The translations under genes were made by a program, and so were the position numbers. A DNA stretch of 39,990 nucleotides from an uncultured Gammaproteobacteria bacterium (GTDB lineage Bacteria > Patescibacteriota > Microgenomatia > Levybacterales > UBA12049): the NCBI GenBank assembly GCA_964408825.1, contig CAYPAU010000005.1, forward strand, positions 1 through 39,990. Direction: 5' to 3'. This document shows, piece after piece, positions 5,946 to 38,638 of the stretch (positions within the stretch are counted from its first letter, which is position 1; every line of letters begins with the position of its first letter). The notes beneath the pieces are model-generated. The model was not told the DNA's origin. It was given only the letters and a program-made list of their open reading frames with translations, and did not search any database.

Positions 5946-7805
5946 ATGATTGCGCCTTTATCCTGGTTAAGGGAATATGTTGATATTTCGCTTCCTCCTG
6001 AAAAACTCGGAGAAAGACTTACTGAAATTGGACTTTCGACAGAGAAAATAGAGAAAACAAGAGACGATGTTATTTTTGAATTTGAAATAACACCCAATAG
6101 GCCAGACCTCCTTTCGATAATAGGAATTGCAAGAGAGACAGCTGCGGTAGAAGGAAAGGAAATAAAGTTTCCAAAACTTTATGATTTAAAAAATGTCAAG
6201 CCTCAAAAAACATTGCCTTTAAAAATTATTACCGATGTAAAAATTAATCCTAGGTTTACCGGAATAATAATTGATGACATTACGGTAAAAGAATCTCCCG
6301 ATTGGCTAAAAGAAAAGCTTACGAAGGTTGGGCAGCGTCCGATAAATAATATTGTTGATATAACAAATTATGTAATGCTGGAGCTCGGGAATCCAATTCA
6401 CGCTTTTGATTACGATAAAATAAAGGGACAGGCTATGAAAGTTCACCAAACAAGGGGAGGAGAAAAATTTACTAGTGTTGATGGAATTTCATACCATCTC
6501 CCAAAAGGAGCTGTGGTTATTTCTGATTCCGATAGAATAATTGACCTTTGCGGAATAAAAGGAGGAGAAAATACAGGAACCTATAAAAATACAAAAACAA
6601 TTTTCTTAAGGGTTCCTGTTGAAGTCCCCTCGCTTATTAGAAGAGCCTCCCAGTCCCTCGGTCTTCGTTCTGAAGCCTCTTCCATATTTGAAAGAGGGGT
6701 AAATGCCGGTGGTACCCTAGATACCTTATCTCGTGCAATTGAGCTTATTCTTGAAATTGCAGGTGGAGAAATCGTAAGTCCGCTTTATGATATCAAAAAA
6801 GAAAATTTTCTTCCTTGGACCATTGACTTAAGTCTTAAGAGACTTTCCAAAATTCTGGGCATTGAAATTCCTAGAGCAAAAGTTATAAATATCCTACAAA
6901 GGCTTAACTTAAAAACCACTAATCTAAAGGGGGATAAAATTAGAGTAAAAATACCAACTTATAGAAATGATCTAAAAATTGAGGAGGATATTATTGAAGA
7001 AGTCGCAAGGCTTTACGGATACAACAACTTTCCTAAAACTTTACCAGAACGGCCAATCCCTACGAAGACAATTCCTTATTTTAAAGATTATAAACTTGAA
7101 GAAAGAGTAAAAGAACTCTTTAAGTCAACCGGATTTTCGGAAATATACTCATATAGTCTTATCTCTGAAAAGGATCTTGAAGAGAATAATATTAATCCGG
7201 ACAAGATACTTCGGGTAGATAATTCAATAAGTCGCGAATTTGAATATCTCAGACCAACGTTAAAAATTAATCTTAGAAAAGCTGTTTTGGAAAACAAGGC
7301 AAATTTCAAGGATATAAATTTATTTGAACTAGGAAAAGTTTATCTTGGGGAATCTATTGATAAATCAAGGGAAACATATTTCCTATCTGGAATATCAAAT
7401 AATAAAAATTTCTATGAAGTGAAGGGGATTCTTGAGAAACTCTTTGAAGAATTAAATATAAAAAGTCAACCGGAGGAAAATATAGAAATTTTAGAGGAGG
7501 GTATTTTCTTTGAACTTAATTATAATACACTTCTTGAGAGAATTGACTTTTCAAAAAAGTTTAAACCACTACCAAAGTTTCCTCCGATAACCGAAGACTT
7601 AACCATTACCTTAAAGGACAAAGATAGGGTTGGAAAAATAATTGAAAAAATAAAAAACCAAAGCAATTTAGTTCGAATTATTGAAGTTATAGATAGATAT
7701 GAAAACAATGTAACTTTTCATATTACTTATCAAAGTGATAAGAGAAACTTGACCCGTGAAGATGTTGAAGAGATCCGAGCAAAAATTTTAAAATCCCTAA
7801 AGTGA
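5946..7805 (+). CDS. pheT: Phenylalanyl-tRNA synthetase beta subunit, short form lacking the N-terminal OB (B2) tRNA-binding insert
   Basis: MIAPLSWLREYV... runs quickly into TPNRPDLLSIIGIARE. It is 619 aa versus about 800 aa typical. Confidence 0.92.
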   Translation: MIAPLSWLREYVDISLPPEKLGERLTEIGLSTEKIEKTRDDVIFEFEITPNRPDLLSIIGIARETAAVEGKEIKFPKLYDLKNVKPQKTLPLKIITDVKINPRFTGIIIDDITVKESPDWLKEKLTKVGQRPINNIVDITNYVMLELGNPIHAFDYDKIKGQAMKVHQTRGGEKFTSVDGISYHLPKGAVVISDSDRIIDLCGIKGGENTGTYKNTKTIFLRVPVEVPSLIRRASQSLGLRSEASSIFERGVNAGGTLDTLSRAIELILEIAGGEIVSPLYDIKKENFLPWTIDLSLKRLSKILGIEIPRAKVINILQRLNLKTTNLKGDKIRVKIPTYRNDLKIEEDIIEEVARLYGYNNFPKTLPERPIPTKTIPYFKDYKLEERVKELFKSTGFSEIYSYSLISEKDLEENNINPDKILRVDNSISREFEYLRPTLKINLRKAVLENKANFKDINLFELGKVYLGESIDKSRETYFLSGISNNKNFYEVKGILEKLFEELNIKSQPEENIEILEEGIFFELNYNTLLERIDFSKKFKPLPKFPPITEDLTITLKDKDRVGKIIEKIKNQSNLVRIIEVIDRYENNVTFHITYQSDKRNLTREDVEEIRAKILKSLK

Positions 7806-10963: not shown

Positions 10964-10996
10964 AGTTGCCAGTGGCTAGTTGCTAGTGGCTAGTGT
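10964..10996. repeat. Heptamer tandem repeat (AGTKGCY)n, CTAGT-word family
   Basis: agttgcc agtggct agttgct agtggct agtg. It lies in the PBP/tyrS divergent spacer. A related array is at 31751-31785. Confidence 0.85.
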
Positions 10997-15275: not shown

Positions 15276-17363
15276 ATGAATCTTGACAAATCGGTCAAAA
15301 GCATGGGCGGTATTTACAAAAAATATGCCGGCCGTCTTGAAAAACTCGGAATAATAAAACTTGAAGATTTTCTCTATCACATCCCTTTTCGCTACGAAGA
15401 TTACTCTCTAATTTCCAAGATAAACAAAGTTCAGGCAGGAGAGACAGTGACCATACAGGGTAAAATTTCGGAGATAAAAAATGAATACACAAGAAGATGG
15501 AAAAATCTTCAAAAAGCAAGGGTTAGGGATAAATCCGGAACTATAGATATAATTTGGTTTAACCAACCCTTTATTCCAAAAATCTTAAAAAAGAACGACC
15601 GCGTCTCTCTCTCCGGAAGGGTAAAACAATATCTAGGAAAAAATATCCTGGAATCCCCGGAATATGAAACTTTAAACGAGCAAACTATTCATACGGGAAG
15701 ACTCATCCCCATCTACAGCGAAACCCGAGGCATCTCGTCCAAATGGATAAGAAAACAAATACATAATTTAATTAGGGAACATAGGGATGAGTTCAAGGAA
15801 TATCTTCCCGATGAAATTCTTAGTATAAATAACTTTTTAAATTTTAAGAATGCTATTGAGCAAATACATTTTCCTTCTTCAAAAAAAAATGCAGAACTTG
15901 CCCGGGAAAGACTTTCCTTCGATGAACTTTTTCTTCTTCAGCTTAAGAGTATGATTAAGAAAGCGCAGTGGAAGAAGAAAAAAGCTTCCAATGTTTTTGA
16001 GGTTTCAAAATTCAGAGAAGAAATCGGAGAGTTTTTAGAAAAACTTCCTTTTAAACTAACCAATTCTCAAAAAAAAGCAGTCGAGGATATTTTAAAAGAC
16101 CTGAAATCAAAAAAACCAATGAACAGACTTCTGGAAGGAGACGTCGGATCGGGTAAAACTGTGGTTTCAGCAATTACAATGTATTTATCCTTTTTAAACG
16201 GGTTCCAGTCAGTTTTGATGGCACCCACAGAAATTCTCGCACAACAACACTACAAGACAATTTCTGATTTATTAAACCCTTTTGGAGTAAAAGTCGGTTT
16301 AGTAACAGGATCAAAGAAATGGAAAATGCTCGCCCCGCGAAGCTTGGACGAAGCGGGGGAAAATGCTCGCCCCGCGAAGCTTGGACGAAGCGGGGGAAAA
16401 TGGAAAATCGATATCCTTGTCGGTACTCACGCTGTAATTTACGGAAAATTAAATTTTGAAAACTTAGGACTTGTTGTGATAGATGAACAGCAAAGGTTTG
16501 GTGTAAAACAGAGATCTCAGCTACGCAACAGAGGGAAAAATCCTCATCTTCTAACGATGACCGCAACTCCGATACCAAGAACCGTTGCACTTGTCATTTA
16601 TGGAGAACTGGATGTCTCATTTCTTTCTGAAATGCCCCATGGACGAAAAACAGTAAAAACATGGCTTGTGCCCGAAGAAAAAAGAGAAAATGCATATGTT
16701 TGGATCGAAAAAGAAATAAAAAACACGAATTCACAAGCATTTATAATTTGTCCTTTTATAGAGGAATCTGAAACCATGGTTTCAGTCAAAGCCGCAACCA
16801 AAGAATTTGAAAGGCTTAAAAAAAACGTTTTTCCAAGATTAAAACTCAAACTTCTGCATGGAAAACAAAAAAGTGAGGGAAAAGAGGAAATCTTAAATGA
16901 TTTTAAAAAGGGGACGGTGGATATACTTGTCGCAACACCGGTCGTTGAAGTTGGTATTGACATTCCCAATGCAACAATAATGCTTGTTGAAGCCTCAGAA
17001 AGATTTGGCCTTTCGCAACTTCATCAACTCAGAGGAAGAGTGGGCAGGAGTGATAAACAATCTTATTGTCTTTTATTTACGGATTCAAAAAACGAAAAAA
17101 CGCTCAAGAGATTAAAGAGTATGGAAAGCATTAACGTGGGCGCGCAATTGGCAGAGCTTGATTTAAAACTCAGAGGACCGGGCGAAATCTACGGAACATC
17201 TCAGCACGGAATTCAGGCTCTTAAAATCGCGTCATTTTCCGATTTTTCTGGAATTGAAAAATCCAGAAAAGAAGCAGAGGCCATTTTACCCAAATTTAAA
17301 AAATATCCAATGCTTCTTAACAAAATAAAGTCCGAAAACCTCGCCGAAATCTCTCCCGATTGA
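15276..17363 (+). CDS. recG: ATP-dependent DNA helicase RecG
   Basis: OB wedge domain, helicase motifs GDVGSGKT, DEQQRFG, TATPIPRT and QLRGRVGR. 695 aa. It contains an in-frame repeat insert. Confidence 0.92.
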   Translation: MNLDKSVKSMGGIYKKYAGRLEKLGIIKLEDFLYHIPFRYEDYSLISKINKVQAGETVTIQGKISEIKNEYTRRWKNLQKARVRDKSGTIDIIWFNQPFIPKILKKNDRVSLSGRVKQYLGKNILESPEYETLNEQTIHTGRLIPIYSETRGISSKWIRKQIHNLIREHRDEFKEYLPDEILSINNFLNFKNAIEQIHFPSSKKNAELARERLSFDELFLLQLKSMIKKAQWKKKKASNVFEVSKFREEIGEFLEKLPFKLTNSQKKAVEDILKDLKSKKPMNRLLEGDVGSGKTVVSAITMYLSFLNGFQSVLMAPTEILAQQHYKTISDLLNPFGVKVGLVTGSKKWKMLAPRSLDEAGENARPAKLGRSGGKWKIDILVGTHAVIYGKLNFENLGLVVIDEQQRFGVKQRSQLRNRGKNPHLLTMTATPIPRTVALVIYGELDVSFLSEMPHGRKTVKTWLVPEEKRENAYVWIEKEIKNTNSQAFIICPFIEESETMVSVKAATKEFERLKKNVFPRLKLKLLHGKQKSEGKEEILNDFKKGTVDILVATPVVEVGIDIPNATIMLVEASERFGLSQLHQLRGRVGRSDKQSYCLLFTDSKNEKTLKRLKSMESINVGAQLAELDLKLRGPGEIYGTSQHGIQALKIASFSDFSGIEKSRKEAEAILPKFKKYPMLLNKIKSENLAEISPD
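16323..16396 (+). repeat. Tandem 2 x 37-nt GC-rich hairpin repeat inside recG
   Basis: The unit AAAATGCTCGCCCCGCGAAGCTTGGACGAAGCGGGGG is identical at 16323-16359 and 16360-16396. It is flanked by AAATGGAAAAT at 16317 and 16398, 81 nt apart. Confidence 0.95.
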
Positions 17364-24355: not shown

Positions 24356-25747
24356 TTAATAATTTCTGACTGTAATCGAGGTCTGAAAAGAGACAGAGGC
24401 TTGATTTTCAGAAAGAGTGCTGCTGCCTTTTGAGATGTTTGCTAAAGTAAAACTGATTGTTATAGTAGGCGGTGAAACTATGCTTTCCTGCCTGCAGGTA
24501 ATCGAGCAGGAAGTGACGCGAACGGAATTTGTATCAACGAGTTTTGTAGTCAAACCGCCGCTGATTGAGGCTATTTGACCATTTTCATCATCTGCCCCGG
24601 GCGTCCCGGACGCAGGAAGACACGAGAAGATCGTTTGCCCGCCGTCAAATGCTGTTACCTTAATGTACTTATAAGCCGGGGCAGGCGTCGGGGACGGACC
24701 CGGAGTAGGGGAAGGGGTGGGAGTAAGAGTTGGAGTGGGAGTAGGAGTAGAGGTCGGAGTAGGAGTAGAGGTTGGCGGGGGCGGAGTATAATATATTGTT
24801 GCGGTAATTTGATCTATGTAAACACTTAAGCCTGTAGAGGCTTGATCGGCATATAGGGAAACACCAAAATTACTGGCTCTAATCTCAGTAGCGCTCCAAG
24901 ACGTCTCTCCCCAGAGATAAGTACCGCTACCGAAAACAAAAAGCTGATCCGAGGTATTTGAAATTGTCAAAGTCTGGGTATTGCCGGTTATTACTCCGGC
25001 TTTTATAGGAGATATAACAAGACGCACCGATCCGGTATTTACTTTCCCCTCGACCTGAAATGAGATGCCCTCAATGGTTGACCCGTCAGGAACGCTTCCC
25101 GGATCAAGATTAAAGCGGAAATCTGTCCCCTTTAGATAGTGAGTTTCTGCTCCCGGATTTAAGGTCTCTTTACCTGTAGAAACATACTTATTATCGCTAG
25201 TTTTAATTTCCGCAGGCTTATCCCAGTTAATAGTACCCGTTGCTCTGGTTGCAGTTGTTGCAGAATTAGGAAATTTCTGAGTCGAGACTGCGGCAGCGAC
25301 ATCCTGCTTAGGACCAGTCTCTCTTATTCCAAATTTTGGAATTAAACTCGCCAAAAAAGATACAGTCTTCTTCCCCAAATTCCGGAGTCGCAAAGTAAAA
25401 CCCTGAGGCTCTTTTTCTGCAATTTCCTTAGGATTTGAGAATGTGATAGGCGCGGTACAATTTTTTGCATAGCTTTCTACAAGGAGGGGATTCGAATCCA
25501 TGCTTACGCCGTCAAAAGATCTTGAGTACTTTATCATTCTTCCCATCTGCTCAATCGCATAATTCCCGTTTCTTCTTACTGTATCAAGAGAGCTTGCCTT
25601 ATTTGATCCCCGAAGAGAAGAGAAGAGAATTCCAACCACCATACTTCCGATCACCATAACAACAATTATCACAACCAGAAGCTCGATTAGGGTAAACCCA
25701 TTCTTTAATTTAAAATTTGAAATTTTAAATTTTAAATTCATCGTCAT
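24356..25747 (-). CDS. Large modular type IV pilin-like protein (463 aa) with an inserted beta-rich module and a Pro/Thr linker
   Basis: Class III signal KLKNG/FTLIELLVV, the linker PPPPTSTPTPTSTPTPTPTLTPTPSPTPGPSPTPAP, and a Cys-containing C-terminal segment. Confidence 0.75.
   Translation of the reverse strand: MTMNLKFKISNFKLKNGFTLIELLVVIIVVMVIGSMVVGILFSSLRGSNKASSLDTVRRNGNYAIEQMGRMIKYSRSFDGVSMDSNPLLVESYAKNCTAPITFSNPKEIAEKEPQGFTLRLRNLGKKTVSFLASLIPKFGIRETGPKQDVAAAVSTQKFPNSATTATRATGTINWDKPAEIKTSDNKYVSTGKETLNPGAETHYLKGTDFRFNLDPGSVPDGSTIEGISFQVEGKVNTGSVRLVISPIKAGVITGNTQTLTISNTSDQLFVFGSGTYLWGETSWSATEIRASNFGVSLYADQASTGLSVYIDQITATIYYTPPPPTSTPTPTSTPTPTPTLTPTPSPTPGPSPTPAPAYKYIKVTAFDGGQTIFSCLPASGTPGADDENGQIASISGGLTTKLVDTNSVRVTSCSITCRQESIVSPPTITISFTLANISKGSSTLSENQASVSFQTSITVRNY
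25704..25738. repeat. Heptamer array (TNAAATT x5) encoding the signal-peptide start of the large pilin
   Basis: tttaatt taaaatt tgaaatt ttaaatt ttaaatt. The coding strand gives MTMNLKFKISNFKLKNG. Confidence 0.8.
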
Positions 25748-26271
25748 GGATAGACCGGCGTAATGGGTTTAAAAAAACACGATGTGAGAGAAACCTTATG
25801 CCAAAATTGACTGACACTCGGACACTTTCCGTCTGACCATTTTACAGTAGACGTCACCCTACCGTTATTTGGGACTGCTGGAGTTGGTGTTACGCCGCAT
25901 ACGTTTTGCTCTACTCTTAGTTCTCTGACGAAAATTCCTACGTTTTGGGGGCAACTTTGTCCGGCAGGAAGCGGAGTAGGAACAACGCCTCCCTGGGGAA
26001 GACAGTAGTAATTGCTGTATCCTGAAAAAGTTCCCCAATTTGACTGAGAAGTGTTACGCAGAACATCCAGTCCCTCTTGCGCAAATTGAGTCGCCTGATT
26101 TTGGTTTATTCCGAACTGCTCATTTGAAAGAGATGAGATAACTACCGCAACAATTGCAGACATTATAAGTGTTGCCGCTCCCAGGGCAACCATTACCTCC
26201 AAAAGTGTCTGTCCACTCTGAACTTTTAACAATTTAACAATGTAGCAATTTAACAATTTCTTTTTACTCAT
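25744..26271 (-). CDS. Minor pilin-like protein (degenerate prepilin signal G/QTLLEV)
   Basis: KVQSG/QTLLEVMVALGAATL and a 4-nt overlap with neighbours on both sides. Confidence 0.65.
   Translation of the reverse strand: MSKKKLLNCYIVKLLKVQSGQTLLEVMVALGAATLIMSAIVAVVISSLSNEQFGINQNQATQFAQEGLDVLRNTSQSNWGTFSGYSNYYCLPQGGVVPTPLPAGQSCPQNVGIFVRELRVEQNVCGVTPTPAVPNNGRVTSTVKWSDGKCPSVSQFWHKVSLTSCFFKPITPVYP
26224..26259. repeat. Octamer array (ATTTAACA-like x4) in the 5' end of the minor pilin ORF
   Basis: ttttaaca atttaaca atgtagca atttaaca. It encodes LLNCYIVKLLK. Confidence 0.75.
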
Positions 26272-26852
26272 TTTATGCTCCCGTCCTTTCCTACTGTGAT
26301 TATGGCCGATTGATTGGTCTGTGTATTTTTAATGCCGATCATCCCATATGATCCACCATCAAATATAATTCCTCCTGTTAAAACAGGGAAGGAGAAAGTA
26401 GAGGGACTATTTTCAATACGATAGCCTCCCGGCAATTTTCCTGTCTTTATGGGAGGGGAGACATAGTTTCCGCCGCATCTTACGTCAAGTTCATAATCGG
26501 CATCTTCGGTATTTATGCAAACCCCCGATGAAACCCCCGCAATCTTACATATTTTTACTTGATATCTATCCAATTGATTTGTATTGCACGGAGGGGTCGA
26601 GGGTTTTACCTGAGAGTAGGCTCTTGATTTGCCAAGATTAAGCATTGACTTTATATCGCCTGCGGCTGCATTTAAAGTCTGGGTTCTTGAGAAGGAAACA
26701 AAAGCAGCGACTCCGACTGTTGAGAGGATTGCCAAGATAGAAAAAACTATCATTAGTTCAATCATTGTAAAACCTACTCTTCTTGATTTTTTTAGAAAGA
26801 GGCGTTTTAGATTAAGGGTTCTTAAGTACATATTGCCGGTTGGGAGAAACAC
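26268..26852 (-). CDS. Type IV pilin-like protein (GspH/FimT-like size)
   Basis: Prepilin signal SRRVG/FTMIELMIVFSIL. An alternative ATG lies at 26831. Confidence 0.75.
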   Translation of the reverse strand: MFLPTGNMYLRTLNLKRLFLKKSRRVGFTMIELMIVFSILAILSTVGVAAFVSFSRTQTLNAAAGDIKSMLNLGKSRAYSQVKPSTPPCNTNQLDRYQVKICKIAGVSSGVCINTEDADYELDVRCGGNYVSPPIKTGKLPGGYRIENSPSTFSFPVLTGGIIFDGGSYGMIGIKNTQTNQSAIITVGKDGSIK

Positions 26853-27354
26853 AAAAAGCAGTTCCAGATATATTTGGGTCTGAGTCGTTCTGATTTTCTA
26901 TACAAGCGGTAAGAGTATAGGATCCGCTTGAGTAGCTATAAATATAGTCACCATAGGTCATAGCATCACCGGAGGAAACATCGTAAACGGATTTATTTGG
27001 ATCACAAGGAGGCTTGGACATATAGGTAGTTGCATTATAGACAGCGGGCGAGGTGGGAGGACAATGAGTAGAGTAAAAAATTGTCTTAAATGAGCTACTG
27101 TCCGGATAGCTTCCTTGATCTGAACGGTAGAATTCAAGGGCCGCTTGAATCTGCCGTAAGTCGGATTTTCTTTGACTGTCTCTTGCTCTTTGTCTTACTC
27201 CGATAAAGTTGGCAAAAAGAACGCTTGCAAGAACTCCGATAATTGCAACTGCAATAAGAAGCTCAATCAGGGTAAAACCAGATCTACAATTGACAATTGA
27301 CAATTGACAATTGACAATTTTTTTGATTTTTGAACGCCACAAGCCTGAATTCAT
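26812..27354 (-). CDS. Type IV pilin / T2SS GspG-like pseudopilin
   Basis: NCRSG/FTLIELLIAVAIIGVLA, then RDSQRKSDLRQIQAALEFY. Confidence 0.8.
   Translation of the reverse strand: MNSGLWRSKIKKIVNCQLSIVNCRSGFTLIELLIAVAIIGVLASVLFANFIGVRQRARDSQRKSDLRQIQAALEFYRSDQGSYPDSSSFKTIFYSTHCPPTSPAVYNATTYMSKPPCDPNKSVYDVSSGDAMTYGDYIYSYSSGSYTLTACIENQNDSDPNISGTAFCVSPNRQYVLKNP
27286..27319. repeat. Heptamer array (ACAATTG x4.9) inside the pilin signal-peptide coding region
   Basis: The coding strand has ATTGTCA x4, giving IVNCQLSIVNC. Confidence 0.9.
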
Positions 27355-27357
27355 AAG

Positions 27358-27385
27358 TCTTAATTCATAAATCTTAAATCTTATG
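27358..27385. repeat. Heptamer array tcttaat tcataaa tcttaaa tcttatg in the pilin-pilin spacer
   Basis: It shares the 13-mer TCTTAATTCATAA with the array at 37601-37631. Confidence 0.8.
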
Positions 27386-28003
27386 TCATGGTGTTATATT
27401 CGCGCTTGTCACACCGTAATTGCACTGAAAACCTGTCCCGCACCCGTCCGCCGTAACCCTCCCGTTTGCATTTGCACATGGGATTGAAGTACATGCTTGG
27501 GTATCAAGACTTCCTCGCTCAAGAGACGCATAGATTGCATAAGATTGTCCATCACTGTATGCCCAATAGGCATAACTTCTTCCAGTTTTTGGATCTTTCG
27601 GGAGTTTTGTTTTGTATGAATCCCAATAACTACCCCAGTTTTGACAACCAGATGGGGGATTGATTCTGTATAGCTCTGTAGCAGAGCATCCAGGAAGTAC
27701 GGCTCCTGTGTTATGTGGAGGATATTTGCCATTATCGTTGTAATATGCCTCAAGAGTCCTTTGAAGTTGGGAAAGATCCGATTTTCTTTGCGAGTCGTTT
27801 GCTTTCTTAAACTGTTCAAGCGGATTAATTATGACTATTACTCCGCTTGTTATAACGCTTAAGACTCCTATTACTATCAGAAGTTCAATAAGAGTAAACC
27901 CAGATGAGTTAGTTGTTCCCCAAAGAAGAGACTTAAAAAAGTTCCCAAAACTAAAAAGGGGCCGAAAGGAATTTTTCCCCCGGGCAGCTTCTTTTTTCCC
28001 CAT
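27386..28003 (-). CDS. Type IV pilin with a long (35-aa) leader
   Basis: TNSSG/FTLIELLIVIGVLSV, then NDSQRKSDLSQLQRTLEAYY. The only in-frame start is ATG 28003, which lies 127 nt inside pilD. Confidence 0.75.
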   Translation of the reverse strand: MGKKEAARGKNSFRPLFSFGNFFKSLLWGTTNSSGFTLIELLIVIGVLSVITSGVIVIINPLEQFKKANDSQRKSDLSQLQRTLEAYYNDNGKYPPHNTGAVLPGCSATELYRINPPSGCQNWGSYWDSYKTKLPKDPKTGRSYAYWAYSDGQSYAIYASLERGSLDTQACTSIPCANANGRVTADGCGTGFQCNYGVTSANITP

Positions 28004-28737
28004 ATAACTAGTATGATGCCTACTGATGCACCTGTCAAGAACGCCAGATAAAAAGCGCCTACAATAAGTGGGAAGCCAAGAAAAAGTCCCATTAAAAACG
28101 CGAGTTTCACATCCCCAAAGCCCATACCCTTACCTTTTGTAATCAAAAAAAGTATAAGAAGAAAAATAAATGCCCCAAAAGCAGAAAGGAGATAATTGCT
28201 GAATTGTTGAATGGTTAAATTGTTGAAATCAAATGGTAAATGGAAAATGGTAAATGGAAAATGGTAAATTACTGAGACTACGACTGCAGGATAAACGATC
28301 TTATCAGGAATAATTCCATATTTTAAATCAGTAAAAAAAATAACTGTCAAACTCGAGGCAATGAAAAGATAATAGAAAAGATCTATTGTTACATTGCTGA
28401 ATTGTTGAATTGTTAAATTAAATGGAAAATGGAAAATGGCAAATGGCAAATTATTTAGTTTAAGAACATAAAGATAAATGATAATAAATATTAACCCTGT
28501 CAAAATCTCAACCAAGGGGTAGTAAAACGAAATAAGGGAGTGGCAATGCCGGCATTTTCCTTTCAGAATCAAAAAGGACAAGACCGGGATCATATCAAAC
28601 CATCTAAGATTTTTTTTGCAGTTATCACAATAAGATCTTCCTCTAAAAACCTGCTCACCATGAGGAATCCTGTCAACAAGAACGTTTAGAAAACTCCCTA
28701 CACAAACTCCTAGAATAAAGAGAAACAATAGCGCCAT
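27877..28737 (-). CDS. pilD: Prepilin peptidase / N-methyltransferase (A24 family)
   Basis: CxxC...CxxC zinc motif and the catalytic Asp contexts DLKYGIIPD and GMGFGDVKL. ATG 28737 is preferred over TTG 28752 because TATAAT lies 6 nt upstream. Confidence 0.9.
   Translation of the reverse strand: MALLFLFILGVCVGSFLNVLVDRIPHGEQVFRGRSYCDNCKKNLRWFDMIPVLSFLILKGKCRHCHSLISFYYPLVEILTGLIFIIIYLYVLKLNNLPFAIFHFPFNLTIQQFSNVTIDLFYYLFIASSLTVIFFTDLKYGIIPDKIVYPAVVVSVIYHFPFTIFHLPFDFNNLTIQQFSNYLLSAFGAFIFLLILFLITKGKGMGFGDVKLAFLMGLFLGFPLIVGAFYLAFLTGASVGIILVIWGKKKLPGGKIPFGPFLVLGTFLSLFFGEQLTHLGLLLLNF
28195..28269. repeat. Composite repeat copy A inside pilD: ATTGCTGAATTGTTGAAT-GGTTAAATT module plus (AAATGGW)x5.5
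   Basis: Seen directly in the sequence. It encodes ...YHFPFTIFHLPFDFNNLTIQQFSN. Confidence 0.9.
28393..28451. repeat. Composite repeat copy B inside pilD: ATTGCTGAATTGTTGAAT-TGTTAAATT module plus (AAATGGM)x4.5
   Basis: Seen directly in the sequence. It encodes ...LPFAIFHFPFNLTIQQFSN. Confidence 0.9.
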
Positions 28738-28743
28738 GAAACA

Positions 28744-28749
28744 ATTATA
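28744..28749 (-). promoter_or_regulatory. -10 box TATAAT (minus strand), 6 nt before pilD ATG 28737
   Basis: The minus strand reads cTTGTATAATtgtttcATG. Confidence 0.45.
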
Positions 28750-28821
28750 CAAGATCTAAGATTTCCGAATTTTATAAAGAAGTTAAATATAAAGGTTTAC
28801 TTATTAGGGTTAAGGTTAAGA

Positions 28822-29403
28822 TTAAGGGGCAAAAGGAGAGAATGTTCCAGCACCGATTTGTGTAGCAGTTGGATCACCAGATAGGCAGACTATACCTGCT
28901 TTGGCAGCTACGGAGGAATATAGCCAGTATGAATTATCGGAAGCAGTTGCACATTTCTTGTCTTCCGACGCAGACTCCATTCTTGTATAGATAACATAAT
29001 CATCGTCGGTAGCTGCTTCACGAGCATAACAATAATTACTCACCACTGCACCAACTGCTGTTGCATCTATGGCACAAGCAGTAGTATTAAATGACCCTGT
29101 AGAATAGGCAACGGTTGAAGGAAGCGATTTAAGCTCACCTGCAGTCACCAGTGTCTGCAGCCACGTACTGTCTGCAGTGGGTAGAGTGGCATTCTGAGCA
29201 GTGTAATACGCTCCCAAGGCATTCTTAAGCTGGGCAGCTGTAGTTTTTCTGCCTGAGTCTCGGCCTCTCGCCAATTGTTCAAGCGGATTTACTGCCGCGA
29301 TAACCAGGGCTGCGATGACTCCAAGAACTGCGATTACTACGAGAAGTTCAATAAGTGTGAACCCTGGAGATTTCTTAAGAAGTTTGGGCAGTTGAAATTT
29401 CAT
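28822..29403 (-). CDS. Probable major type IV pilin
   Basis: Short leader MKFQLPKLLKKSPG/FTLIELLVVIAVLGVIAAL, an Ala/Thr/Gly-rich body with 4 Cys, its own consensus -35, and first pilin position after pilC. Confidence 0.8.
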   Translation of the reverse strand: MKFQLPKLLKKSPGFTLIELLVVIAVLGVIAALVIAAVNPLEQLARGRDSGRKTTAAQLKNALGAYYTAQNATLPTADSTWLQTLVTAGELKSLPSTVAYSTGSFNTTACAIDATAVGAVVSNYCYAREAATDDDYVIYTRMESASEDKKCATASDNSYWLYSSVAAKAGIVCLSGDPTATQIGAGTFSPFAP

Positions 29404-29442
29404 CTATATATTAAGTAGAGCAGAAAAAAAATAACTTGTCAA
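29404..29442 (-). promoter_or_regulatory. Major pilin promoter: TTGACA-N11-TTCTGCTCTA box, TACTTAAT, ATG within about 12 nt
   Basis: The minus strand reads cTTGACAagttattttttTTCTGCTCTActtaatatatagATG. There is no SD. Confidence 0.55.
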
Positions 29443-29460
29443 GGGGGCAAATTGAGGCTA

Positions 29461-29482
29461 ATTATTAGTTATTAGTTATTTT
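29461..29482. repeat. Heptamer array (ATTAGTT x2.5) spanning the pilC stop codon
   Basis: att attagtt attagtt atttt. Confidence 0.7.
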
Positions 29483-30681
29483 ACCGAAGAAATTAAACTA
29501 TAAATCGGAGTAATAACAGACACCAGAAGAAATGCCACTCCAGCTCCCAGTGTCACCATAATGGCAGGCTCAAGCGCCGTAGTCAGGGTTTTTACGGTTT
29601 GATCTGTCTCAAATTCAAAATACTCAGACGCCTTAAGAAGAGTCTCATCAAGTTTTCCTGTTTCCTCTCCAATTTTAACAAGCTGTGAAAGAACCGGAGG
29701 AAATAAAGAATAAGACGAAAGCGCCTCTCCGACAGAAACTCCATTTTCAACTTTTCTTGCAACTCCCATAGCCGCATTCTTGTAATGAATATTTCCCAAA
29801 GTATCCGATGCCTGAACCAGGGAGTCAACTACGAGAGTTCCCGATCCTACAAGAAGACTTAAGGTTCTTGAAAATTCGGTGAGGATTATTTTTTTTGAAA
29901 GATTGCCAAAAATTGGTATTTTCAAAGTTAGGTTATCGATAACGAGTCTTCCTGCCTGACTTTTATGCCATCTTCCAAATAGAAAGAGCCCCAAGACCAA
30001 TATACCGATTATAAAAGGCCAGAAAGTTATTAAAAAACCCGACATTCCGATAATCATTTTCGTAGTAAAAGGAAGCTCAACGTCTAGACTCTTGTAAAGC
30101 CCTGATAATTGAGGGATAACAACAGTCATCATTATAACAACAACAAGAATCATAAGAAGAACGACAATAGCAGGATAGGTGAGAGCACCTTTAATGGTTC
30201 TATTTAATTTATCTTGTTTCTCAAGATTTTCTGCCAAGCGCGTCAAGGCTTTATCCAAAAGTCCGGATGATTCGGCGGATTTTACGATTGATACGTAAAT
30301 AGGAGAAAAAACATCGGGGGATTTCGATATCGAAGAAGAAAATGTCTTTCCTTCCTCTATATCCGAAATGATTCCTCCGACAATCTCAATTGTTGACTGA
30401 CTAGTAAATTGCTCCTTGAGTATTTCAAGGGATTTCAAAAGAGTAAGACCAGAGGTAAGCATTGAGGAGAGTTGTCTTGTGAAAAGCATTAGGTCCGAGT
30501 GCTTCACCCGACTAAAAAACGGCAAAAATTTTAATATATTATTTTTATCTTCCGAGAAAACAGTAATTGGCACTAATCCTTTGCTCCTAAGATAGGTTAT
30601 GGATTCGGGGATATCTTTGGCTTCAATAAGCCCTCTTATTATTTTATTGTCCTTTGAAATCGCTTTATATCGAAGTTTCAT
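29476..30681 (-). CDS. pilC: Type IV pilus platform protein PilC (GspF family)
   Basis: Duplicated GspF domains and three TM segments. ATG 30681 lies 1 nt after the pilT stop. The track ORF extends to 30708. Confidence 0.9.
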   Translation of the reverse strand: MKLRYKAISKDNKIIRGLIEAKDIPESITYLRSKGLVPITVFSEDKNNILKFLPFFSRVKHSDLMLFTRQLSSMLTSGLTLLKSLEILKEQFTSQSTIEIVGGIISDIEEGKTFSSSISKSPDVFSPIYVSIVKSAESSGLLDKALTRLAENLEKQDKLNRTIKGALTYPAIVVLLMILVVVIMMTVVIPQLSGLYKSLDVELPFTTKMIIGMSGFLITFWPFIIGILVLGLFLFGRWHKSQAGRLVIDNLTLKIPIFGNLSKKIILTEFSRTLSLLVGSGTLVVDSLVQASDTLGNIHYKNAAMGVARKVENGVSVGEALSSYSLFPPVLSQLVKIGEETGKLDETLLKASEYFEFETDQTVKTLTTALEPAIMVTLGAGVAFLLVSVITPIYSLISSVK

Positions 30682-30682
30682 A

Positions 30683-31747
30683 TCAACCGACAAGACGCAA
30701 GAGCTCATCCTGTCTCAACGCATAGCTTCTTGCGGTTTCAAGACTTATGGTTCCGCCTAAGACCAGAGAAGCAAGCGATGACTCAAGCGGAATCATTCCC
30801 ACATCTTGAGAGTTTTGAATAATAGAATCTATAAGATGTGTTTTCCCGTCTCTTATGTTACTTGCGATAGCACTCGTACCAATCAGAAGTTCAACTGCCG
30901 GGATCCTGCCACCTGATATTTGAGGCATAAGTCTTTGAGAAACTATTCCCTTAAGAGTTGCTGAAAGCTGTGCTCTAATTTGGGACTGCTGATCCGAAGA
31001 AAATACATCAATTATTCGGTCTATACTCTGAGAGGCGGAGTTGGTATGAAGAGTTGAAAAAACCAAATGTCCTGTCTCTGCAATTGTAATCGTTGATGCT
31101 ATAGTTTCAGGATCCCTCATTTCCCCAACCAAGACCACATCCGGATCTTCGCGAAGAGCGGAACGTAAGGCCGCCTGCCACGAATTTGTATCCTGCCCCA
31201 TCTCACGCTGAGAGATCAGGCTCTTTCCATGAGGATAGATATATTCGATCGGGTCTTCGATGGTAAGAATATGAACTGCTCTTCCTAAGTTAATTTCATT
31301 AATAATTGCAGCAAGTGTGGTCGATTTCCCATGACCGGTTGGTCCCGCAATAAGAATAAGTCCCTGTTTAAGAGTTGCGAAATTATGAAGATATTTTGGA
31401 AGATTTAGCTCTTCAATCGTCCTTATCTTTGGCTCAAGGAATCTAAATTCTCCGCAAATAAAATTCTTTTGAAAATAAATGTTTGCCCGGAATCGTCCCG
31501 TCTGACCATTGGCACCCTCAAAACTAAAGGAGAAATCAAGCTCTTTATTTAAAATAAATTTTTCTTTTTGCGACTGATTAAGAAGCGAGAAAATCATACT
31601 GTGTGTATCTTCTCCTGAGAGAGGCAGAGCGTCTGAGACGAATGAAAGCTCACCATCAATGCGAAGAGAAGGAGGAACTCCGGGAATAAGATGTAAATCC
31701 GATGCCTTACTGTTTACTGTAAGATGTAAAAGGTGTTGAATATCCAT
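30683..31747 (-). CDS. pilT: Twitching motility (retraction) ATPase PilT
   Basis: Walker A GPTGHGKST, Asp box, Walker B VVLVGEMRD, His box FSTLHTNSA. 354 aa. Confidence 0.92.
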   Translation of the reverse strand: MDIQHLLHLTVNSKASDLHLIPGVPPSLRIDGELSFVSDALPLSGEDTHSMIFSLLNQSQKEKFILNKELDFSFSFEGANGQTGRFRANIYFQKNFICGEFRFLEPKIRTIEELNLPKYLHNFATLKQGLILIAGPTGHGKSTTLAAIINEINLGRAVHILTIEDPIEYIYPHGKSLISQREMGQDTNSWQAALRSALREDPDVVLVGEMRDPETIASTITIAETGHLVFSTLHTNSASQSIDRIIDVFSSDQQSQIRAQLSATLKGIVSQRLMPQISGGRIPAVELLIGTSAIASNIRDGKTHLIDSIIQNSQDVGMIPLESSLASLVLGGTISLETARSYALRQDELLRLVG

Positions 31748-31750
31748 AAA

Positions 31751-31785
31751 CTAGTTGCTAGCGACTAGTTACTAGTGGCTAGTTA
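31751..31785. repeat. Heptamer array ctagttg ctagcga ctagtta ctagtgg ctagtta in the pilB-pilT spacer
   Basis: Same CTAGT word family as 10964-10996. It runs into the pilB stop codon. Confidence 0.85.
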
Positions 31786-33516
31786 TTCTTGTGCTACTCT
31801 TATTACCTCCTCGGGTGTCGTTATGCCAGATAGAACCTTAAAGTAGCCATCCTGTTTCATTGTTATCATTCCCTCATTTAACGCTTCTTTCTGAACGGCG
31901 GCACTGCCCGGGCGCTCAAGAATAAGATTTGCCATTTTCTGAGAAATCGGTAAAACTTCAAAAATACCAATTCGACCCAAATATCCAGAGCCTGAACACT
32001 TATCGCAACCTTTTCCTCGATATAATTTAAGTTCTGAACCATTTGGAGACGGATATAATTTTCCCAAAACATTTTTTATCTCTTCTGTAATTTGTCTAAG
32101 TGGAGCATACGGTTCTCTGCATGTCGCACAGACTCTTCTGACAATTCTTTGCCCGACAACCGCATTCATTGTCGATGAAAGAAGAAAGGGCTCAGCACCC
32201 AAATCTATAAGACGAGGTATTGCTCCAGCCGCATCTGAAGTATGAAGTGCCGAAAAAACCAAATGTCCCGTGAGTGATGCCTGAATAGCAAGCTCGGTGG
32301 TTTCTCCGTCTCTTATTTCTCCAACAAGGATTATATTGGGGTCTTGTCTTAAGAATGACCTAAGACCTGTTGCAAAAGTAAGTCCCACACCGGGATTTAT
32401 CTGTATCTGATTAACTCCCGGCATTTGATACTCAACAGGATCTTCAAGGGTCATAATATTAACTCTTGTTGTATTAAGTTTCTCCAAAACCGCATAAAGA
32501 GTAGTAGTTTTACCAGATCCGGTCGGACCACAAACCAATATAACTCCATGCGGGCGAAGAATCGATGTTTCTAAATTTTTAAGAGATGTTCCCGTAAGAC
32601 CAAGTTCGGGAAGAGTAGGTATTCCTCCTGATTTACGAAGAAGCCTCATCACAATCTTCTCTCCAAAGGTTGTCGGCATTACGGAAATACGAAGATCCAC
32701 TTCGTTATTGTCTACTTTGAAATTAAAACGGCCGTCCTGTGGCATTCTGTGTTCATCGATTTTCATGTCGGAAAGGATTTTGATGCGGGATATGACTGCT
32801 TCCTGAACGGTCTTTGGAAGACTCAGCCTGTCATACAAAATACCATCTATTCTGTAACGCACTCTGATTCGATCTTCCTGCGGTTCAATGTGGACATCAG
32901 AGGCTCTGCTTGATACCGCATATTCAAGAATAGTTGAAACGATTTTGGCAATAGGAGCCTCTTTTATAATCTCCGCAATTTCCTTACTGTCGATGGTTTT
33001 TGCCTTAATCAGCTCCTCTGTCTGCTTTATAGCCTCTCCGACTTCTCCTACGATTTCCTGTTTGTACTGTTGTCTTATTGCTGTTTTTATATCCTCAAAA
33101 GGTGCTGCAAAAGTCTTGAGGGTAAGTCCTGTTTTTTGTCTGACAAATTCCAAGGCTTCAAGGTCTACGGGATTGGCCATTGCGACGGACAAGGTTTTTG
33201 TCCGCTCGTCATACATAAAGGGGATAAGCGTAAATCTTTCGGCAACAGCTCTTGAAATCATTGAGAGGGCAAGAGGAGAAAAGGATGTTGAGGAAAGTGA
33301 GATAAAAGGAATTCCTAAGAGTCTTGCCTTGGCTTCTGCAATTTTATCGGAGGAAACAATTCCTGACAACAAAAGAGTCTCTTCGTATGATTTGTCTAAG
33401 CTTGCGGCTTTAACCTTAATATCCTGAACCTGTGAAGGGGTCAAGATATGCTCGGAAAGCAGAATATCAAGTATCGTAGACTTTATGGAATCTGTATTAA
33501 AATCTGTGGCGGGCAT
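31783..33516 (-). CDS. pilB: Type IV pilus assembly ATPase PilB (GspE family)
   Basis: N-terminal GSPII domain, Walker A GPTGSGKTT, tetracysteine CATC...CDKC, 577 aa. Confidence 0.93.
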   Translation of the reverse strand: MPATDFNTDSIKSTILDILLSEHILTPSQVQDIKVKAASLDKSYEETLLLSGIVSSDKIAEAKARLLGIPFISLSSTSFSPLALSMISRAVAERFTLIPFMYDERTKTLSVAMANPVDLEALEFVRQKTGLTLKTFAAPFEDIKTAIRQQYKQEIVGEVGEAIKQTEELIKAKTIDSKEIAEIIKEAPIAKIVSTILEYAVSSRASDVHIEPQEDRIRVRYRIDGILYDRLSLPKTVQEAVISRIKILSDMKIDEHRMPQDGRFNFKVDNNEVDLRISVMPTTFGEKIVMRLLRKSGGIPTLPELGLTGTSLKNLETSILRPHGVILVCGPTGSGKTTTLYAVLEKLNTTRVNIMTLEDPVEYQMPGVNQIQINPGVGLTFATGLRSFLRQDPNIILVGEIRDGETTELAIQASLTGHLVFSALHTSDAAGAIPRLIDLGAEPFLLSSTMNAVVGQRIVRRVCATCREPYAPLRQITEEIKNVLGKLYPSPNGSELKLYRGKGCDKCSGSGYLGRIGIFEVLPISQKMANLILERPGSAAVQKEALNEGMITMKQDGYFKVLSGITTPEEVIRVAQE

Positions 33517-36430: not shown

Positions 36431-37621
36431 ATGTCTATTTTTAATTCACTCGGTTCAAACTATGATTTTAAATTTGTTTTAAAGACACTGCTTTCTGTTG
36501 GGGGAGAATCGGAAAAGCGAAAACTAAAAGAAACTCTGAGAAGAAAATATAAGGGGGAAGTATTATTGTTCTATAAGGGTAGAGAAGCTCTAACTTTTGC
36601 TCTAAAGTCTTTGTCTCTTCCGGAAGAATCGAAGACTGCCATTAACGGATTTACGTGTTATGCAGTTTATAAAGCCGTTGAGGAAGCCGGTCTAAAACCA
36701 GTCTTACTTGACATCGACGACAGCCTGAATTTTTCTCCGGAAAAACTTAAAAGTATCATAGAATCTTCGGATATCAAGGTTGTCATCGTACAAAATACGC
36801 TGGGGTACATATGTGAAATAAAAGAAATTGCAAAAATTTGTAAAAAAAATAATATTATTCTTATTGAAGATTTGGCTCATTGTGTTGGGACAAATTACGA
36901 AAACGGAGAAGAAGCGGGGACAGTTGGCGATTTCGTAGTGTTTTCTTTCAGCCAAGACAAAATGGTTGACGGAATATCGGGTGGAGCATTAATTGCAAAA
37001 ATTCAAAATTCAAAATTCAAAATTCAAAATTATTCCTACCCACAGTTTTCAGTACAGATCAAGAATCGGCTTTATCCGCTACTTACATTTATAATTCGGT
37101 CAGCTTACGATTTTGGTTTGGGTAAATTACTCCACTACTTTTTGAAAAAATCGAACATGCTTTCAACACCCATGGACGATTCGTTATATGGAACGCTAAA
37201 TCTTTCAGACTTCTATCAATCACTAGTAATGGAATCTTTTAATAATCTTAAAGGAGACTTGGAACATCGGAAAAAGATCGCAAAAATTTATAAAAATAAT
37301 CTGCCCTCTAAAATATTATTTGAAAAAATTACTTCTCAAATAGAAAATTCCTCAAATCTTCGTTTTCCAATTTTTGTAGAAAACCGAGACAAGCTGTTAA
37401 AATTCTTAAAAAGTAAAGGTTTTTATATTTCGGACATCTGGTATGATGCGCCAATTTCTCCAAAAAGATTTATGCAAAAAATTGAATATGCAGGAGATTG
37501 TCCCAATGCTGAGGAGATTTCTGAAAGAATTTTAAACTTACCGACACACAAAAACATTTCGGAAAAACAAGCGTTAAAATTGGCAAAATATATAAATAAT
37601 TTCTTAATTCATAATTCTTAA
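36431..37621 (+). CDS. DegT/DnrJ/EryC1/StrS-family PLP aminotransferase (amino-sugar biosynthesis)
   Basis: Family layout with the PLP lysine context FSFSQDK. It contains an in-frame heptamer-repeat insert. Confidence 0.85.
   Translation: MSIFNSLGSNYDFKFVLKTLLSVGGESEKRKLKETLRRKYKGEVLLFYKGREALTFALKSLSLPEESKTAINGFTCYAVYKAVEEAGLKPVLLDIDDSLNFSPEKLKSIIESSDIKVVIVQNTLGYICEIKEIAKICKKNNIILIEDLAHCVGTNYENGEEAGTVGDFVVFSFSQDKMVDGISGGALIAKIQNSKFKIQNYSYPQFSVQIKNRLYPLLTFIIRSAYDFGLGKLLHYFLKKSNMLSTPMDDSLYGTLNLSDFYQSLVMESFNNLKGDLEHRKKIAKIYKNNLPSKILFEKITSQIENSSNLRFPIFVENRDKLLKFLKSKGFYISDIWYDAPISPKRFMQKIEYAGDCPNAEEISERILNLPTHKNISEKQALKLAKYINNFLIHNS
36998..37032. repeat. Heptamer array (AAAATTC x5) in frame inside the aminotransferase gene
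   Basis: It encodes KIQNSKFKIQN immediately after GGALIA. Confidence 0.9.
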
Positions 37622-37631
37622 TTCATGATTC
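37601..37631. repeat. Heptamer array ttcttaa ttcataa ttcttaa ttcatga spanning the DegT stop and the FemAB start
   Basis: Stop TAA at 37619-37621 and ATG at 37625 are both embedded in the array. Confidence 0.85.
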
Positions 37632-38638
37632 AACCAAAAGAAATAAGTAGTAAAACCGAGTGGGAAAACTTTTTAGCAAATCACGAGGAGGCAAATTTTC
37701 TTCAGTCATGGTATTGGGGAGAATTCCATAAAAATCTTGGTCAAGAGATTATAAGAACCGGGTTTTACAAAAATAATAAATTAAAAGGGGTCATGCTTTC
37801 AATTGTCGAAAAAGCCAAAAGAGGAAGGCATCTAATAGTTCCAGGAGGACCCATCATTGATTGGGAAGATAAAAAAATAGTCGAAAGCTTCTGTAAAGAA
37901 ATAAAAAAAATTGCATATATTTACGATTGTGCTTTTATAAGAGTAAGACCCCAGCTTGAATCATCCGATTTTTCAAAAAATCTGTTTAAAAACTGCGGAT
38001 TCATAAACGCCCCCATGCATCTTCATGCACAGCTCACATCTCAACTTGAGATTACAAAATCTGAGGAAGAGTTGCTTTCCAATATGAGAAAGACGACTCG
38101 TTATGAAATAAAAAAGGCAGAGAAAGAAGGGGTTAAAATAATCTCTTCGAAAGATCCGAAAGACATACAAGGGTTTTATGATCTTCAAATACAGACTTCG
38201 CTTCGCCAAAGATTTATCCCTTTTCCTTATGAATATTTACATGAACAGTTTAAAGTTTTGGCAGAGAATAATCTTGCACTTTTATACAATGCTCTTTTTG
38301 AAAAAAAACTCTTAGCTCAAGCTTTTATAATATTTTATGGCAGTGAAGCAGTTTATCATTACGGTGCAAGTACTGATGAAGGAAGAAATCATCCGGGAGC
38401 ATATCTAATACAATGGGAGGCGATAAGGGAAGCAAAAAAAAGAGGTCTTAAAAGATACAATCTTTGGGGTATTGCTAATGACCCAAAGCACAGATTTTAC
38501 AGTTTATCAATATTTAAGCGGGGATTTGGTGGGCAGGACGTTGAATATCTTCAAGCACAGGATCTCGTAATAAATTATCCAAGATATTTAATAAATCTTT
38601 CCATAGAACGTCTCAGAAAAATCCGCAGAAGAGTCTAG
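37625..38638 (+). CDS. FemAB-family peptidoglycan interpeptide-bridge aminoacyltransferase
   Basis: FLQSWYWGEF and YHYGASTDEGRNHPGAYLIQWEAIREAKKRGLKRYNLWGI. Confidence 0.85.
   Translation: MIQPKEISSKTEWENFLANHEEANFLQSWYWGEFHKNLGQEIIRTGFYKNNKLKGVMLSIVEKAKRGRHLIVPGGPIIDWEDKKIVESFCKEIKKIAYIYDCAFIRVRPQLESSDFSKNLFKNCGFINAPMHLHAQLTSQLEITKSEEELLSNMRKTTRYEIKKAEKEGVKIISSKDPKDIQGFYDLQIQTSLRQRFIPFPYEYLHEQFKVLAENNLALLYNALFEKKLLAQAFIIFYGSEAVYHYGASTDEGRNHPGAYLIQWEAIREAKKRGLKRYNLWGIANDPKHRFYSLSIFKRGFGGQDVEYLQAQDLVINYPRYLINLSIERLRKIRRRV

Follow-up and report, generated by a model that had tools for sequence, protein, structure and literature searches.

Heptamer and octamer arrays, probably translated, in the disposable prepilin leaders of minor pilins from a Levybacteria-type genome

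We analyzed a 39,990-nucleotide (nt) stretch of contig CAYPAU010000005.1 (assembly GCA_964408825.1; hereafter the window), which has a G+C content of ~38% and whose closest relatives are metagenome-assembled genomes of Levybacteria/Microgenomates (Candidate Phyla Radiation, CPR; Patescibacteria). In three minor pilin genes of its type IV pilus operon, a tandem array of 7- or 8-nt units occupies the region coding for the prepilin leader. We hold, with moderate confidence, that these are lineage-typical simple-sequence arrays housed in prepilin leaders, which constitute latent frameshift sites where any switching is probably rare and incidental and not the output of a dedicated high-frequency system. 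A first-pass annotation of the same DNA had proposed slipped-strand phase variation of surface structures. The architecture and the frameshift that it described are present, and one 14-nt deletion allele was found in a relative; however, the arrays are short, their class is widespread, and 55 of 56 arrays compared were invariant in length.

Arrays were called with Tandem Repeats Finder, and chance levels were obtained from dinucleotide-preserving shuffles. The three leader arrays and the pilin genes around them are listed below, with a slash marking the prepilin cleavage site.

27286-27319, minus strand: heptamer array CAATTGT (coding strand), period 7, 4.9 copies, 100% matches; encodes IVNCQLSIVNC in the 180-aa leader
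26224-26259 (Tandem Repeats Finder 26225-26259), minus strand: octamer array AAATTGTT, period 8, 4.4 copies, 85% matches; encodes LLNCYIVKLLK in the 175-aa leader
25704-25738 (Tandem Repeats Finder 25707-25738), minus strand: heptamer array AATTTAA, period 7, 4.6 copies, 92% matches; encodes NLKFKISNFKLK in the 463-aa leader
26812-27354, minus strand: 180-aa minor pilin gene; T2SS-G-like fold signature; leader MNSGLWRSKIKKIVNCQLSIVNCRSG/F
26268-26852, minus strand: array-free 194-aa pilin gene, which separates the 180-aa gene from the 175-aa gene
25744-26271, minus strand: 175-aa minor pilin gene; G/QTLLE motif; ATG overlaps the stop of the upstream gene (ATGA)
24356-25747, minus strand: 463-aa pilin gene with a Pro/Thr-rich linker; ATG overlaps the stop of the 175-aa gene (ATGA)

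The open reading frames (ORFs) begin KKIVNCQLSIVNCRSG/FTLIELL (180 aa), MSKKKLLNCYIVKLLKVQSG/QTLLEVM (175 aa) and MTMNLKFKISNFKLKNG/FTLIELL (463 aa), and each array follows the ATG and precedes the glycine of the class III (prepilin) cleavage motif. Leaders of this class are basic and short and have a terminal Gly, after which come F, M or Q, a hydrophobic helix and a Glu at +5. Features of class III prepilin leaders are present in all three proteins (G/FTLIELL in the 180-aa and 463-aa proteins, G/QTLLEVM in the 175-aa protein), and the prepilin peptidase PilD is encoded in the same locus. The Pfam N_methyl match was significant for the 180-aa protein and lay under the curated cut-off for the 175-aa and 463-aa proteins, in which the motif G/[FQ]TL[IL]E is visible despite the subthreshold match. 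Tandem Repeats Finder and translation of the minus strand reproduced the leader peptides given in the first-pass annotation. Its placement of all three arrays between the ATG and a G/F site is correct in that each precedes the cleavage glycine, but the 175-aa gene has G/Q; the three genes, which it called adjacent, are interrupted by the array-free 194-aa pilin gene that separates the 180-aa and 175-aa genes. The window contains four nonredundant period-7 arrays of at least three copies (0.10 in shuffles) and three of period 8 (0.05 in shuffles), and the three leader arrays are far beyond chance. Only the array of the 180-aa gene consists of perfect repeats.

In the 175-aa and 463-aa genes, the ATG shares bases with the stop codon of the gene before it (ATGA), an arrangement typical of coupled translation. 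At the observed length and phase, an (AATTTAA)n or (AAATTGTT)n array free of mismatches would contain exactly one in-frame TAA. This codon is replaced by TCA in the 463-aa array and by TAC in the 175-aa array, and the only open frame in either array is the one that links the ATG to the mature pilin. For these two pilins, the ATGA overlaps and the removal of the sole in-frame stop by substitution support translation through the array at the sequence level. Across the window and its relatives, arrays within coding sequences whose units bear a stop had lost the in-frame stop by mismatch in 10 of 10 cases, with only the correct frame open, and three perfect arrays within coding sequences are built of units that are stop-free in every frame. 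Under random placement of mismatches, the chance of an open frame was 0.07 to 0.23 per array, giving a joint chance of ~0.03 for the two window genes and ~6e-6 for six independent leader arrays. Arrays within coding sequences are shown in this way to be kept open by purifying selection. For the 180-aa array the stop-avoidance test is uninformative because the CAATTGT unit has no stop in any frame; it also supplies TTG in every frame across three units. The possibility that the true starts lie downstream of the arrays, against which the first-pass annotation had set its proposal, thus fails for the 463-aa and 175-aa genes on the evidence of stop removal, and for the 180-aa gene that evidence is silent.

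The prediction that a change in unit number would move the mature pilin out of frame was borne out by simulation: for each of the three genes, changes of -2 to +2 units broke the frame between the annotated ATG and the mature pilin. After three of these four changes the 463-aa gene had no start left before the cleavage site, and after the loss of one unit its sole remaining start was a distant GTG upstream. The 175-aa and 180-aa genes kept an in-frame TTG or GTG before the cleavage site at every simulated unit number, and slipped copies of these genes may switch to it; such a start switch is possible because Shine-Dalgarno sites are rarely used, a Shine-Dalgarno-like site being found at only 5 of 36 window genes. 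Many window ATGs have a TATAAT-like box 5 to 8 nt upstream, for example at 29404-29450 before the major pilin gene. Together, the few Shine-Dalgarno sites and these boxes suggest leaderless or Shine-Dalgarno-independent initiation.

We then compared copy number among relatives, whose loci and contigs are denoted by L numbers. Exact look-ups of the 180-aa pilin and PilT returned no second contig of the window's species, and its PilD cluster has one member on one contig. The comparison covered relatives only, in eight near-clonal populations with 5 to 10 contigs each from different assemblies. Length was invariant in 55 of 56 period-7 or period-8 arrays, each compared with at least one further contig (~265 array-by-contig comparisons). 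The variable array, in the population with PilD P0007, shows a 14-nt deletion of two units (AACTCTC AATTCTC); L027 and L028 have no other indel in 10.9 kb and are otherwise 99.98% identical. The affected array is in the leader (MKKKSSRPWRKNSQFSTLNSQLSSGAG/FTLVELI) of a minor pilin whose orthologue in the window is the 194-aa gene, and the deletion maps to L027 7583-7619. The gene is in frame in L027, L031 and L032 and frameshifted in L028 and L030. The OFF sequences trace to ERZ4903072/ERZ27254763, and the ON sequences to JGI 3300025323, SAMN03842431 and SAMN03842437. This OFF allele leaves the mature frame with no ATG, GTG or TTG, and gene calling yields a 113-aa remnant. L028 and L030 are both MEGAHIT contigs sharing contig coordinate 32949 and are probably one sample assembled twice; the OFF allele therefore amounts to a single independent observation and may be an assembly artefact. 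No MEGAHIT contig had collapsed other equally perfect arrays.

Other indels in these populations were in-frame changes (48 nt) in a Pro/Thr hexamer linker or triplet slips. In the window, the Pro/Thr-rich linker of the 463-aa pilin is made from a hexamer/18-mer repeat (24702-24772), and its orthologue (L021, 8891-8963) shows 48-nt in-frame length differences among samples, yielding proteins of 474, 458 and 469 aa. Differences in gene length within populations F and G (for example, 80/147/165 aa and 222/215 aa) were considered as repeat variation and rejected, as they reflect gene-caller start choices on indel-free DNA. Length variants within 90% PilD clusters were likewise dismissed, being few and not changes of heptamer units.

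Orthologous leaders in relatives share the position of the array and differ in its unit, which is AAATTTA in the 180-aa orthologue of L009, TCTTAAA in the 463-aa orthologue of L001 and CAACTCT in the 175-aa orthologue of L001. The octamer array of the 175-aa gene is orthologous in L009 and L016, whose PilD is 69% identical to that of the window. There the unit register is kept, the stop-avoiding TAC is shared, and the arrays differ by one codon and not by one unit. A leader array of 4.7 to 5.3 copies of AACTCTC (KLSTLNSQLSTRKG/F) occurs in L027 (6983-7019), L035 (6988-7020) and L044 (1560-1592), with equal aligned length and at most two differing bases, in pilin genes that are only 62 to 71% identical; as aligned, this array is far more conserved than the gene around it. 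Several genes of L027, L035 and L044 have purine-rich GAGAATT or GAGAGTT arrays upstream, partly complementary to AACTCTC.

Genomes with classical contingency loci usually show many OFF copies. Among 80 species-level loci, we counted 46 leader-proximal arrays, defined as ending at most 75 nt upstream of the cleavage codon of a pilin-like gene, and none (0/46) lacked an in-frame start. There was an in-frame ATG upstream in 31, a GTG or TTG upstream in 4, and a start only inside or after the array in 11. In the first set of relatives, 22 of 22 leader arrays were in frame.

Arrays are concentrated at pilin starts. In a set of 12 loci (the window and 11 relatives), leader-end arrays were found in 22 of 55 pilin-like genes and 2 of 156 other genes (Fisher p = 6e-13, with orthologues that are not independent). 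In the independent set of 80 loci, arrays lie at the starts of 43 of 330 pilin-like genes and 27 of 796 others (odds ratio 4.3, p = 1.4e-8). L027 has a leader array in five of its seven pilins, the major pilin included. The same class is found, however, in PilD, in DegT, at a hydrolase N-terminus and in many spacers. The members of the class elsewhere in the window are as follows.

27348-27383, minus strand: degenerate heptamer array AAGATTT / ATGAATT; fills the spacer before the 180-aa gene and contains its ATG
28194-28269, minus strand: octamer and heptamer arrays (CAACAATT, CCATTTA), in frame in PilD loop 2
28385-28451, minus strand: octamer and heptamer arrays, in frame in PilD loop 1
31750-31785, minus strand: AACTAGT-like heptamer array; fills the PilB-PilT intergenic spacer
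36998-37031, plus strand: perfect heptamer array AAAATTC, 4.9 copies, in frame in a DegT/DnrJ/EryC1-type aminotransferase gene (36431-37621); encodes KIQNSKFKIQN
37596-37632, plus strand: heptamer array from the 3' end of the aminotransferase gene through the ATG of the next gene
5849-5943, plus strand: long degenerate A/T-rich heptamer/octamer array in an intergenic spacer
10964-10995, no strand assigned: heptamer array AGTGGCT in a divergent intergenic region

A perfect array lying in frame inside the DegT-type aminotransferase shows that this repeat class extends beyond pilins. In 104 kb of relatives there were 20 period-7 arrays against 0.1 expected from shuffles, with lengths clustering at 29 to 36 nt, and the 80 species-level CPR pilus loci (1.09 Mb) held 129 arrays of period 7 and 19, 15 and 8 of periods 8, 9 and 6, respectively. 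Period 7 is therefore over-represented against both chance and other periods, as in heptanucleotide long simple-sequence repeats, and the arrays are dispersed, mostly intergenic or start-proximal, with positions conserved in relatives while unit and length vary. The PilB-PilT junction carries an array in the window, L001, L003, L005, L006 and L021, with a different unit in each, and ATG-bearing arrays of the type at 27348-27383 encode IMNYELRIKN at the pilin starts of relatives. In an alignment of 32 PilD homologues, both array-bearing loops were hypervariable and array encoded (FSIFNSQFSI, IVNHQSSIINN, RFMIYDLRF). L009 and L016, which are near-identical populations, have different arrays in PilD loop 2. 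Exact (CAATTGT)4 and (AACTCTC)4 were each found at more than 120 loci, in Bacteroidales, cyanobacteria, Planctomycetes, Verrucomicrobia and other CPR groups, and a pilin motif followed in 0 of 240 sampled loci from other phyla. The units are not clade specific, and no link to pilins was seen outside this clade. On the coding strand, G makes up 6.8% of the arrays of the window and L001-L009 and 20.5% of the window genes, a G-poor asymmetry of the sense strand that slippage alone does not explain. In the window, Rfam at gathering thresholds matched only a tRNA, promoter-like sites were not in excess (31 against 27.1 in shuffles), and terminator-like sites were modestly above shuffles (18 against 11.1; standard deviation, 3.2). 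A common structured RNA element was considered and dropped, as folding of five array regions gave inconsistent z-scores of +0.3 to -3.2.

We next compared the arrays with known systems. Neisseria pilC has a poly-G tract in its signal-peptide region. In the Opa genes of Neisseria, CTCTT pentamer repeats in the leader-peptide coding region act as a translational switch (PMC3960869). The pilin arrays resemble Opa in that a non-triplet repeat (periods 7, 8 and 7), as in a translational contingency locus, separates the start codon from the functional, mature part of a surface-structure protein; it shapes only the discarded leader, and a unit change shifts the frame. They differ in that Opa tracts are longer, perfect and hypervariable (~1e-3 per cell per generation), with many copies OFF, whereas the arrays here have 4.4 to 4.9 units, two are degenerate, no OFF copy occurs in the reference contigs, and one polymorphism was seen in relatives. 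Measured against the long, pure tracts of hypermutable loci, 4.9 units at 100% matches, 4.6 at 92% and 4.4 at 85% are shorter than classical examples. Interruptions in a repeat tract are expected to suppress slippage. In addition, the leaders are of different kinds, class III prepilin leaders cut by PilD here and a Sec signal peptide in Opa, and, unlike with Opa, the same repeat class occurs in housekeeping genes. Membership of the Opa-type class is not established, ON/OFF polymorphism in repeat number having been seen only once, in relatives.

Heptamers are an over-represented class of bacterial long simple-sequence repeats, for which polymerase slippage has been proposed (PMC4692102, PMC4679880). 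Examples are the GGGAATC repeats of Xanthomonas, the STRR heptamers of heterocystous cyanobacteria (PMC4692102) and the TAACTGA repeats of Beggiatoaceae, cyanobacteria and Bacteroidetes (PMC4679880). On all features tested, the arrays described here belong to this class: period 7 dominates, units are few (two to six in Beggiatoaceae), arrays are dispersed through the genome and occasionally lie in ORFs at protein termini, and positions are conserved as length and sequence vary. Unlike genomes with one dominant unit, this one has many coexisting units; its arrays are also A/T-rich and G-poor on the coding strand, and a large share of them, in pilin leaders and PilD loops, are read in frame as protein. 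The palindromic elements of Rickettsia are inserted in frame in protein genes. In Borg elements, tandem repeats are reported to create new disordered protein regions (PMC9879509). Like both, the arrays are repetitive DNA tolerated at permissive coding sites and add lineage-specific peptide segments; unlike them, they have a unit of 7 or 8 nt, keep the frame only by total array length and are not palindromic mobile elements. The first-pass annotation knew of no such description in this kind of organism, and our search agrees, as no paper in the searchable literature linked Patescibacteria or CPR with pilus phase variation or heptamer repeats. On repeats in CPR, the search retrieved a single study, which describes an in-frame 9-mer repeat in a surface protein of Gracilibacteria (PMC6851277).

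In the explanation that we favour, the arrays would be simple-sequence repeats translated within the disposable prepilin leaders of three minor pilins, and would belong to a class of heptamer (less often octamer) arrays of ~30 to 36 nt found throughout Levybacteria/Microgenomates-type CPR genomes. This class clusters near gene starts, fills spacers and sits in frame at permissive coding sites. The arrays would arise by replication slippage and accumulate where sequence is unconstrained. Those in leaders would survive since PilD cuts the leader off, so that it need presumably only stay open, short and basic. No switch is needed to explain the enrichment at pilin starts, since no available coding site is more permissive than the leader that PilD removes. 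Gain or loss of one or two units would disconnect the mature pilin from its ATG, and a relative shows one event of this kind. ON/OFF switching is probably rare because the tracts are short and partly degenerate, length was almost always invariant, no OFF copy was found in the reference contigs, and the octamer register is kept across species. Several points weigh against this explanation. The evidence on copy number comes from relatives, and the assemblies are consensus sequences, in which minority OFF variants at 0.1 to 5% are invisible, so that switching which is rare yet adaptive may occur. The slippage origin is taken from the literature. Finally, the enrichment at pilin starts is fourfold or more and some leader arrays are conserved almost perfectly across species; both exceed what plain neutrality predicts, which hints at a function, either switching or a cis-acting role.

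We regard it as possible, although unlikely, that the arrays are true contingency loci, in which selected hypermutable leader tracts switch minor pilins ON and OFF as in Opa and so diversify the pilus tip or the adhesion of an episymbiotic CPR cell. Here the architecture is right, simulation confirms the frameshift, array enrichment in pilin leaders is strong, and the sole polymorphic array of 56 is of the predicted kind, a non-triplet change of 14 nt in a pilin leader with no in-frame start left. The persistence of near-perfect arrays across species implies ongoing homogenization by slippage, consensus assemblies would hide minority variants, and type IV pili are reported to be central to CPR host attachment (PMC11623550). 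However, the arrays reach only 4.4 to 4.9 units, with degeneracy in two of the three, 55 of 56 were invariant over ~265 comparisons, and an in-frame start is present in 46 of 46 leader-proximal arrays of the 80 loci and in 22 of 22 of the first relative set. Arrays of this class are found in PilD and DegT too, genes for which switching is implausible, and the OFF contigs L028 and L030 are probably one sample, leaving a single independent observation that may be an assembly artefact.

Less probable still is a role of the arrays as cis-acting elements of translation initiation or regulation at the mRNA level, which the pilin leader merely tolerates; A/U-rich, G-poor and weakly structured arrays at starts would aid Shine-Dalgarno-independent initiation, or re-initiation within the operon. 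The scarcity of Shine-Dalgarno-like sites (5 of 36 genes) and the low coding-strand G of the arrays (6.8% against 20.5%) are consistent with such a role, as are the arrays that abut or contain starts (27348-27383, 31750-31785 and 37596-37632), the 11 of 46 relatives' arrays with a start inside or after them, the start-site arrays of 27 non-pilin genes, and the CAATTGT and AATTATG units, which supply TTG or ATG in every frame. The PilB/PilT junction array is kept in the window, L001, L003, L005, L006 and L021 despite differing units, and in Beggiatoaceae there is a precedent in TAACTGA heptamers just upstream of starts where ribosome-binding sites are rare (PMC4679880). Against it, no sequence motif common to the arrays was found, the RNA folding results were inconsistent (z, +0.3 to -3.2), and an initiation role makes no sense for arrays deep inside coding sequences such as PilD and DegT. 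We think it very unlikely that the start of the 180-aa gene has been misassigned, with a TTG in the CAATTGT array or another downstream start being used, so that the array would be mostly 5' untranslated and slippage would leave the frame unaffected. The stop-free CAATTGT unit, on which stop avoidance is uninformative, the in-frame TTG or GTG before G/F at every simulated copy number, the short leaders of relatives (such as MKG/F) and the 11 of 46 relatives' arrays whose only start is inside or after the array would all fit this alternative. It concerns only one of the three arrays, however, and it is opposed by the in-frame ATG at 27354 that opens the ORF, by the in-frame ATG upstream of 31 of 46 relatives' leader arrays, and by the support for translation through the array in both neighbouring genes.

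Ultrasmall CPR bacteria are believed to locate host cells and cling to them mainly by means of type IV pili. It is doubtful, in our judgement, that the leader arrays are conserved and selected in Microgenomates-type CPR bacteria to switch minor pilins or tune translation and thereby vary host attachment; if true, this would be the first contingency-locus system described in CPR. Should leader arrays switch minor pilins, bet-hedging would be common to CPR and mucosal pathogens, and the ON/OFF state could be read from metagenomic reads. Even without switching, a heptamer repeat class pervades these reduced genomes and is routinely translated, in pilin leaders and PilD loops, and translated arrays matter for CPR gene calling, start-site annotation and protein-family alignments.

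The pilus operon, to which a 274-aa protein, PilM and PilN also belong, was delimited as follows.

21.9-33.5 kb, minus strand: type IV pilus operon
31783-33516, minus strand: PilB
30683-31747, minus strand: PilT
29476-30708, minus strand: PilC
28822-29403, minus strand: major-type pilin
27877-28752, minus strand: prepilin peptidase PilD (Pfam A24_N_bact and Peptidase_A24), the leader-removing enzyme, with two in-frame double arrays inside
27386-28003, minus strand: pilin-like gene; with the four pilin genes at 24356-27354, one of five besides the major-type pilin

PilC of the window is 65 to 71% identical to that of L001-L003. The window, L001-L003 and L009 have a TTGACA box upstream of the major pilin gene, and a C-rich stretch (CCCCCTTGACAAG) precedes this box in the window, L001, L002 and L009. 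L009 and L016 are 99.4 to 100% identical over the pilus operon except in a patch of ~1.5 kb (locus positions ~5500-7000) at 69 to 88%, which comprises the 3' part of the major pilin gene, PilD and the start of the next gene; the patch suggests recombinational swapping of the major pilin allele. The pilus operons of relatives contain inserted genes, namely HepT/MNT and PIN/Phd or ParE toxin-antitoxin pairs, an IS200-like Y1 transposase gene and genes for 23S-rRNA-intervening-sequence proteins (IVP), at L027 3300-4955 and 8214-8468, L035 4243-4868, L044 3559-3927 and L293 1943-4720. A link between the arrays and the transposase, toxin-antitoxin or IVP genes of these operons was considered and set aside, as nothing connecting them was found.

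A different repeat was observed elsewhere in the window. A perfect 37-nt direct repeat of 2.2 copies (GGAAAATGCTCGCCCCGCGAAGCTTGGACGAAGCGGG; 16321-16402) lies in frame in a 695-aa ORF (15276-17363), which we take to be a RecG-type helicase, and encodes WKMLAPRSLDEAGENARPAKLGRSGGKWK. The repeat is GC-rich within an AT-rich genome, and each unit contains the inverted repeat CCCCGC...GCGGGG; it looks like a small palindromic element inserted in a coding gene.

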